A stretch of 64,000 nucleotides of DNA, from positions 62,001 through 126,000 of the forward strand of contig CP060766.1 of assembly GCA_023205875.1 (NCBI GenBank), written 5' to 3'. Of the stretch, positions 11,913-12,229 are shown in pieces; positions within the stretch are counted from its first letter, which is position 1, and each line of letters starts with the position of its first letter. This DNA is from Chloropicon primus. Taxonomy: Eukaryota. Position numbers and translations under genes: made by a program. The notes below the pieces were generated by a model. It searched no databases. It was not told where the DNA came from and saw only the letters and a list, made by a program, of their open reading frames with translations.

Positions 11913-11948
11913 AAACAAAAACTTAATATCTCGGATTACAAAATCGGC

Positions 11949-12229
11949 GAGAGCCTGCAAAATTGTGTCAAAACTTGGCCGCAACAGCTCTCCCGACACG
12001 AGAAAGTCGAAGACCTTTGGACCCTCTTCATCGTCCTCGTCCGCGGTGCTAAGGAGCGCGTTGATCGTCTGGCTCAAGCCGTAACGCGTCGAGTTCGAAG
12101 GAAGAGCGATATCCTTTGTTCCAGCGCAGGAGGCATGGTAACCCGCGTAGTAACCTGCAGGGTCGACCTGGAGAACCGTCGGTACTCGAAGTCCGCGCAG
12201 TGCTCGCCCGACTGCTGATGACAGCTCAT
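11949..12229 (-). pseudogene. WDR12: 5' fragment of ribosome biogenesis factor WDR12/Ytm1 (NLE/UBL domain only)
   Basis: KDIALPSNSTRYGLSQTINALLSTADEDDEEGPKVFDFLVSGELLRPSFDTIL matches the TRYGLS..IN.LL...FDFL..GELLR signature; the upstream part is recognisable only with indels; no WD40 repeats follow. Confidence 0.7.

Follow-up and report, generated by a model that had tools for sequence, protein, structure and literature searches.

Fanzor proteins are eukaryotic Cas12-like nucleases, and one of their hosts is the marine green alga Chloropicon primus. In two reports (PMC10432273, PMC10530073) their omegaRNAs lie in the stretch that follows the Fanzor stop codon, and for Spu-1 the former describes a 75-nt scaffold that ends at the TIR and is followed by a variable guide of 14-15 nt. 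The Helitron2-Fanzor1 elements CRe-1,2,3 of Chlamydomonas are represented, in Bao and Jurka 2013 (PMC3627910), by copies that keep their 3' end, lose or gain sequence at the 5' end and often have TSDs of 7-19 bp. Pack-MULE, Pack-CACTA and Helitron gene capture (PMC13317346; see also PMC8903248 and PMC6379663) yields multi-copy elements with fused pieces of unlinked host genes and chimeric ORFs; no link to an RNA-guided nuclease was found in the literature on Pack-type or Helitron capture. In C. primus itself a likewise non-autonomous Fanzor element, the Fanzor2* TIR element, is presented in PMC10711439 and bioRxiv 2023.08.09.552727. Its proteins are 477-543 aa in length (UPR03652, UPR02811, UPR04245 and QDZ25014) and its copies carry TIRs and 5-nt TSDs (PMC10711439). 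The family treated below is absent from all nine Chloropicon rows of the Fanzor2* tables in these two sources, and its membership in the Fanzor2* UPR03652 family was rejected on account of its Fanzor1 fold and of the other accessions given in the tables of PMC10711439. The supplement of PMC12301720 lists ~30 "IS605 transposase" models per strain under OG0000008/9; these likely represent the separate Fanzor2* family.

The window analysed here, a stretch of 64,000 nucleotides of the C. primus genome, holds a copy of a Fanzor1 element whose features are collected in Table 1. The 3' frame of its Fanzor gene matches PF07282 (Pfam) and, at 97%, the full-length C. primus family protein. The structural model of this protein (pLDDT 80.9) had SpuFz1 as its best Foldseek match (E 2e-15, TM 0.67) and SpuFz, PpFz and GtFz as its top seven (E 2e-15 to 6e-12), whereas mimivirus Fanzor2 matched with E 4.5e-5 and TM 0.26; a PDB sequence search with the protein returned no matches. 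In an alignment that took in 39 of the 150 distant relatives among the matches listed, RuvC-I D311-P312-G313 was invariant in 40/40 sequences, as was E474, and the DPG motif is present in the window. The RuvC-II residue E474 stands six residues before a C4 zinc finger (C481/484/521/524), which is followed by R530-D531, and all of these are kept in the family. Fold, DPG, shifted RuvC-II glutamate, C4 zinc finger and RD are as in the Fanzor1 proteins SpuFz1, PpFz1 and GtFz1 (PMC10432273), and the predicted structure places the nuclease in Fanzor1, with the SpuFz1 fold, rather than in Fanzor2 or TnpB. A scan of viral contigs also brought up four distant Fanzor1-like relatives (L011-L014, 23-27%).

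Table 1. Coordinates of the element copy and its parts, counted from the first letter of the 64-kb window.
Feature	Position	Strand	Remarks
C. primus Fanzor1 element copy	9393..12217, ends approximate	+	below family size at both ends
Perfect 13-bp GC-rich hairpin	9530..9561	.	imperfect outer stem 9520-9568; near left end
Fanzor1 ORF	10117..11803	+	broken in this copy; family protein 566 aa
Fanzor1 catalytic sites	DPG ~11046; RuvC-II E 11532; RD 11700	+	within the Fanzor1 ORF
Non-coding stretch, 48% GC, candidate omegaRNA scaffold	11804..11979	+	follows true stop; ~188 nt in family
Small imperfect hairpin	11929..11952	+	chance level, z -1.15
WDR12/Ytm1 NLE piece, residues 27-71	11979..12113	-	identity to C. 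primus WDR12
Proteasome subunit alpha-6 (PSMA6/alpha1) piece	12107..12169	-	PDB phmmer and host-gene contigs
Epoxide-hydrolase-like alpha/beta-hydrolase piece, last 48 nt	12170..12217	-	QDZ20338.1 residues 223-238

An intact Fanzor frame is absent in this copy. Compared with family contigs, single bases have been lost in four homopolymer runs (10989, 11088, 11186 and 11303) and 10 nt at 11752/11753, five indels in all, and translation from 10117 meets a stop at codon 421. The closest full-length protein, QDZ24299.1, differs from the window at only 3 of 291 residues, and real decay and long-read error are therefore both possible causes; the contigs, which collapse copies, do not separate the two. 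The family stop codon is the TAG at 11801-11803; in this copy the loss of 10 nt at 11752/11753 lets the frame read through to the TGA at 11910-11912. The initial annotation had put WDR12 40-65 bp beyond the Fanzor stop codon; from the family stop the distance is 175 nt (66 from the read-through TGA). Ahead of the annotated start, an Arg/Lys-rich frame from 9779 and an open frame (9779-10116), in which family contigs have five more letters at 9980, suggest a longer Fanzor N terminus.

The element resembles SpuFz1-type Fanzor1 elements (PMC10432273) in having a non-coding stretch past the stop codon. The folding of this stretch is modest, with z -2.4 to -2.6 for the best 80-nt windows among 24 and z -0.67 for the whole; an Rfam search of it gave no matches, and its translation in two frames gave no credible PDB match. 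The small hairpin pointed out earlier has exactly the letters described, but it lies 26 nt from the WDR12 match and not at the junction, and it folds no better than shuffled sequence. At 11881, one contig of run X2 departs from the window with 22 other letters and perhaps represents a copy with another 3' end.

Past this stretch, the minus-strand frame 11889-12284 carries an NLE domain (PF08154, E 3.4e-11, Pfam), and residues 27-71 of C. primus WDR12 (QDZ22179.1) are matched at 45/45 positions. WDR12 was found by a search of the longer proteins, as 1 match among 524 candidates. That the minus strand beyond the Fanzor encodes the WDR12 NLE domain, with the WD40 body missing, had been seen correctly: no other part of WDR12 was found by tblastn in the 64-kb window, the DNA left of the element included. 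The assignment of all of 11913-12229 to a WDR12 N-terminal fragment stands only for the interval in Table 1, as residues 1-26 are absent and 12114-12229 consists of two other genes and flank. Alignment to the intact gene, annotated at its full 489 aa in both C. primus strain assemblies, sets the breakpoint and makes this an internal piece, not the gene start. At 11979-11982 family contigs carry 18 more letters than the copy in the window, which on hand reading extend the WDR12 match by 10 nt on the Fanzor side, to residue 73 and ~141 nt in total. Contigs of four runs begin exactly at this extended edge, where they presumably join the host WDR12 gene. In a metagenome scan, a 20-nt pattern from the WDR12 piece hit 10 loci, 0/10 of which match WDR12 or Fanzor beyond 20-24 nt, and we take all of them to be chance matches.

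The WDR12 piece is followed, in order from the Fanzor stop, by pieces of PSMA6 and of a hydrolase gene; WDR12 and PSMA6 are essential genes. All 33 PDB phmmer matches of the PSMA6 piece are proteasome alpha chains (best E 0.012-0.013), though a Pfam search did not detect it, and long host-gene contigs leave the window at 12107 and 12169, the two ends of the piece. The WDR12 and PSMA6 pieces overlap at 12107-12113, where they share codons with one mismatch to PSMA6, at 12111 by the contig ends. From its letters this overlap appears to be a microhomology junction, short and imperfect; it is the only junction at which microhomology was judged, both parents being readable there. The hydrolase piece, identified by protein search (2 matches among 4 candidates), continues 650-800 nt further in other family copies: one DNA contig covers 12112-12217 and then 648 nt more, and another reaches 799 nt past 12217. 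It takes in the start and a long 5' portion of its gene. Presumed-RNA contigs cover the WDR12 piece and end 753-763 nt past 12217 in three runs of two studies, while the DNA contig there reaches 799, which weakly suggests a transcript boundary, on either strand, at the 5' end of the hydrolase. The annotated protein QDZ20338.1 is a chimeric ORF whose hydrolase part is followed by a tail read out of frame from the PSMA6 and WDR12 pieces (12217-12077), and QDZ21101.1/UPR00315.1 and QDZ25361.1 likewise end in an out-of-frame PSMA6 and WDR12 reading. One chimeric ORF, and no other, contains in addition a piece from the interior of FTHFS (Pfam positions 272-412 out of 556). All host-gene pieces are antisense to the Fanzor, 3/3 in the window and 4/4 with FTHFS.

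The same chain recurs behind other members of the family. Four full-length proteins are annotated in the Fanzor1 cluster, family proteins being 97-99% identical, and a second cluster consists of shorter Fanzor models, one of which is identical to the window (278/278 residues). In the supplement of PMC12301720 the family appears under OG0000062, an orthogroup of hypothetical proteins confined to C. primus, with six loci in one strain and, in the other, four loci with five models; loci 04p28570 and 17p78800 are given for a single strain. Chimeric ORF and Fanzor have neighbouring accessions in QDZ20338.1-QDZ20339.1, QDZ21101.1-QDZ21102.1, UPR00315.1-UPR00316.1 and QDZ25361.1-QDZ25362.1, adjacency being read from accession numbering on equally long contigs. 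In this way a chimeric ORF stands beside the Fanzor at 3/6 loci of one strain and 1/4 of the other, the remaining 3/6 loci of the first strain having no such neighbour in that protein cluster. Family contigs with an unbroken frame span 10860-12141 and 10761-12002, from the Fanzor into the WDR12 piece, and the element therefore does not end before WDR12. Contig depth, a rough measure that is not a copy number, is similar over the Fanzor and the WDR12 piece, at ~5-7 times the flank in two DNA runs: ~6.3x just before the WDR12 piece and 7.0x over it in one, and 4.8x and 6.4x in the other. Run X8 has no contig over 11780-12300, which is not proof of absence.

The WDR12 piece is accordingly shared family cargo and not a copy-specific spacer. 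The proposal that it forms this copy's own 3' flank fails because the piece lies inside the element and is common to other loci, and comparison of the 3' flanks of other Fanzor copies, which show the same WDR12, PSMA6 and hydrolase chain elsewhere, leaves no copy-specific spacer. To judge from the sequences, the guide-side DNA of this Fanzor1 family is fixed between copies and made of host genes, lacking the variability of a guide. The related suggestion of homing, in which a WDR12 allele or duplicate would have received this copy and the flank would supply the copy's own guide, draws on the WDR12 piece being the first recognisable host DNA past the Fanzor, yet retains hardly any probability. 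No WDR12 remainder lies on the left side, residues 1-26 are replaced by the PSMA6 and hydrolase pieces, and the WDR12 piece is common to other loci, with contigs of single-copy flank starting at 12199 and 12227 and the flank proper only from ~12218-12227. The site itself lies between divergently oriented neighbours, a SAM-domain gene and an ABC transporter, so the copy is intergenic and not exonic, and WDR12 is full-length in both strains. Homing is thus refuted for this locus, and the family ancestor alone may have sat in WDR12. The other possibility raised at the outset, capture of a host fragment, is supported, the WDR12 piece being the first of three host-gene pieces inside the element.

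A chimera of assembly as the source of the chain is more improbable still. The homopolymer losses of this copy are typical of long-read errors, and the reading of a metagenome protein, P0160 (JGI), follows PSMA6 rather than WDR12; against this, contigs of several runs from three studies bridge the chain, and it is annotated at several loci in two assemblies. P0160 itself runs from the hydrolase into PSMA6 and on along the PSMA6 gene, and is either a variant that lacks the WDR12 junction or the product of chimeric assembly.

Both ends of the copy are ragged. Loose contig ends and DNA contigs continue the family sequence to the left of 9393/9395 and to the right of 12217, and contigs of public runs have extra family DNA at 9455/9456. 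No direct repeat of at least 4 nt that could be a TSD was found at the ends of this copy, and no TIR pair between them, only short chance-level matches. The GC-rich hairpin near the left end (z -4.52 as DNA, with 1/200 shuffles equally good; region z -5.5/-6.5 in the 80-nt scan) is the sole strong structure of the copy and a possible terminal signal of the element, the family termini lying outside this copy. Beside it, at 9513-9546, lies a 17-nt unit that seems to occur once more in a different copy of the element (loose end 9519). The tetranucleotide CTTT stands at 9389-9392, directly before 9393, at this one site. The element resembles CRe (PMC3627910) in being green-algal and non-autonomous with truncated copies and with occasional extra non-element sequence at an end; the possible terminal hairpin and the T-rich bases before this one insertion would also be as in CRe. 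Unlike CRe, as given there, it bears its cargo on the 3' (guide) side and is ragged at either end, with no TSD detected. It also differs from Spu-1 (PMC10432273) in that conserved pieces of host genes, ~1 kb or more in all, follow it, with no TIR or TSD seen.

Several repeats lie around and beyond the copy. A short AATCCTC-like motif at 9286, 9320 and 12384, upstream of both genes that flank the copy, is possibly a shared promoter or leader element; many contigs branch at 9322-9396 and 12367, and similar 60-nt repeats occur at 19992, 28617, 50330 and 50512. Further off, a gene at 20240-25337 is present in three tandem copies with variable numbers of a 267-nt unit; inverted gene duplicates (36398-40323 and 33503-34881, up to 576 nt at 97%) are accompanied by a satellite of 11-nt units that recurs near 42462; and 45314-48941 holds two near-identical 518-aa ORFs made up of tandem 87-nt units, and a partial third copy lies at ~49500-50100.

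As to how the host pieces were gathered, we lean, with moderate confidence, towards ragged-ended copying that dragged part of the old flank to new sites. An element of this kind would have no fixed right end and would be copied into a chromosome break, either by repair synthesis or by an unseen partner through one-ended rolling-circle copying. The copying would overrun the old end into the flank and halt at a few bases shared with the recipient end. Where such an insertion struck a coding exon, a scrap of that gene would stay in all descendants, the oldest scrap lying closest to the Fanzor, and each junction would record one past exon insertion. Such insertions would be tolerated because the alga is mostly diploid, as PMC12301720 gives both strains to be. 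In favour of flank dragging, both ends of the copy fall short of the family and are without a TSD, and the one judgeable junction lies in the near-match at 12107-12113. Against it, the present copy sits between genes and not in an exon, a single junction shows microhomology, 3/6 loci of one strain are without an annotated chimeric neighbour in that cluster, and the one-way orientation of all pieces, which chance alone would give with a probability of 1/4 to 1/8, is unexplained by such copying. A transposase partner was not found, and neither an empty site nor a family terminus was seen in the contig data, nor any DNA of the host WDR12 or hydrolase genes; nor was a WDR12 or hydrolase host contig present as a loose end among the contig rows listed. 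Graph cleaning together with a 20-nt overlap might account for the missing host contigs, as it might for the PSMA6 branch that run X2 does not show.

This anatomy would also be expected if template switching had captured the pieces internally, which counts against flank dragging. A Pack-type origin, which we hold to be possible though rather unlikely, would involve a cut-and-paste or Helitron element with its proper ends beyond the cargo and template switching during gap repair; the element would never have sat in the donor genes, and the copy in the window would be a later truncation. Several pieces of host genes from unlinked loci are indeed found here in a multi-copy element, short internal coding pieces fused at microhomology, and the family continues on both sides with its true ends outside this copy while the host genes remain intact. 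In contrast, the hydrolase piece, as a long 5' gene part with its start, is what an old flank would be expected to give, the cargo grows outward, with FTHFS in a single copy, and there is no TIR pair between the ends of this copy. The TIR and TSD or Helitron ends that define Pack and Helitron elements (PMC13317346) were not seen at this truncated copy.

The first host base follows the family stop by ~188 nt. A scaffold of that length is plausible, and intact copies could thus have a WDR12 guide that does not change. We give a low probability to the proposal, drawn from sequence, that the omegaRNA scaffold stops where the WDR12 piece begins and that intact copies load a WDR12-matching guide of 15-20 nt, and an equally low one to its corollary, that the nuclease would cut or bind host WDR12 unless a TAM is missing; either capture route is compatible with both. 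The host piece does begin behind a non-coding, AT-richer stretch of the kind in which omegaRNAs lie, the family retains D311, E474, the zinc finger and R530-D531, and the full-length proteins number four. Yet known guides differ among copies and the WDR12 sequence does not, and the candidate scaffold is weakly structured by prediction. Upstream of the host target, the adjoining 5 nt would read GCNAG or GCYAA, as deduced from L74 and A75 on the assumption of no intron, and thus contain GC, whereas Fanzor1 TAMs are described as AT-rich (PMC13565253). Host WDR12 is also full-length in both strains, and the related algal CrFNuc was without cleavage in a TAM screen. In the copy in the window the WDR12 piece is likely inert cargo, because its nuclease frame, as assembled, is interrupted and the 18 nt are missing from the scaffold-WDR12 junction. 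It is a doubtful notion that this Fanzor1 family keeps on its guide side a chronological tape of past insertion sites and that the guide has thereby been frozen on WDR12 in intact copies.

Neither the family nor host-gene chains behind a Fanzor were found in the largely open-access literature searched, which for PMC10530073 and PMC10432273 took in the main texts. For the genome of C. primus, some annotated "hydrolase" and "FTHFS" genes are element cargo, and a Fanzor element is here seen doing exon shuffling. A young family with fixed guide-side host DNA implies either that its omegaRNA reads into WDR12 or that it spread without a site-specific guide. The restorative-homing model requires a fresh guide for each insertion. 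Were the guide frozen, the nuclease aimed at WDR12 would be held in check by a mismatched TAM or by antisense transcripts that start from the 5' end of the captured hydrolase, and would act as a selfish toxin or regulator rather than as a restorative homing nuclease. An omegaRNA that reads into WDR12 would, if true, be a natural self-targeting guide, in a cultured alga with finished genomes.
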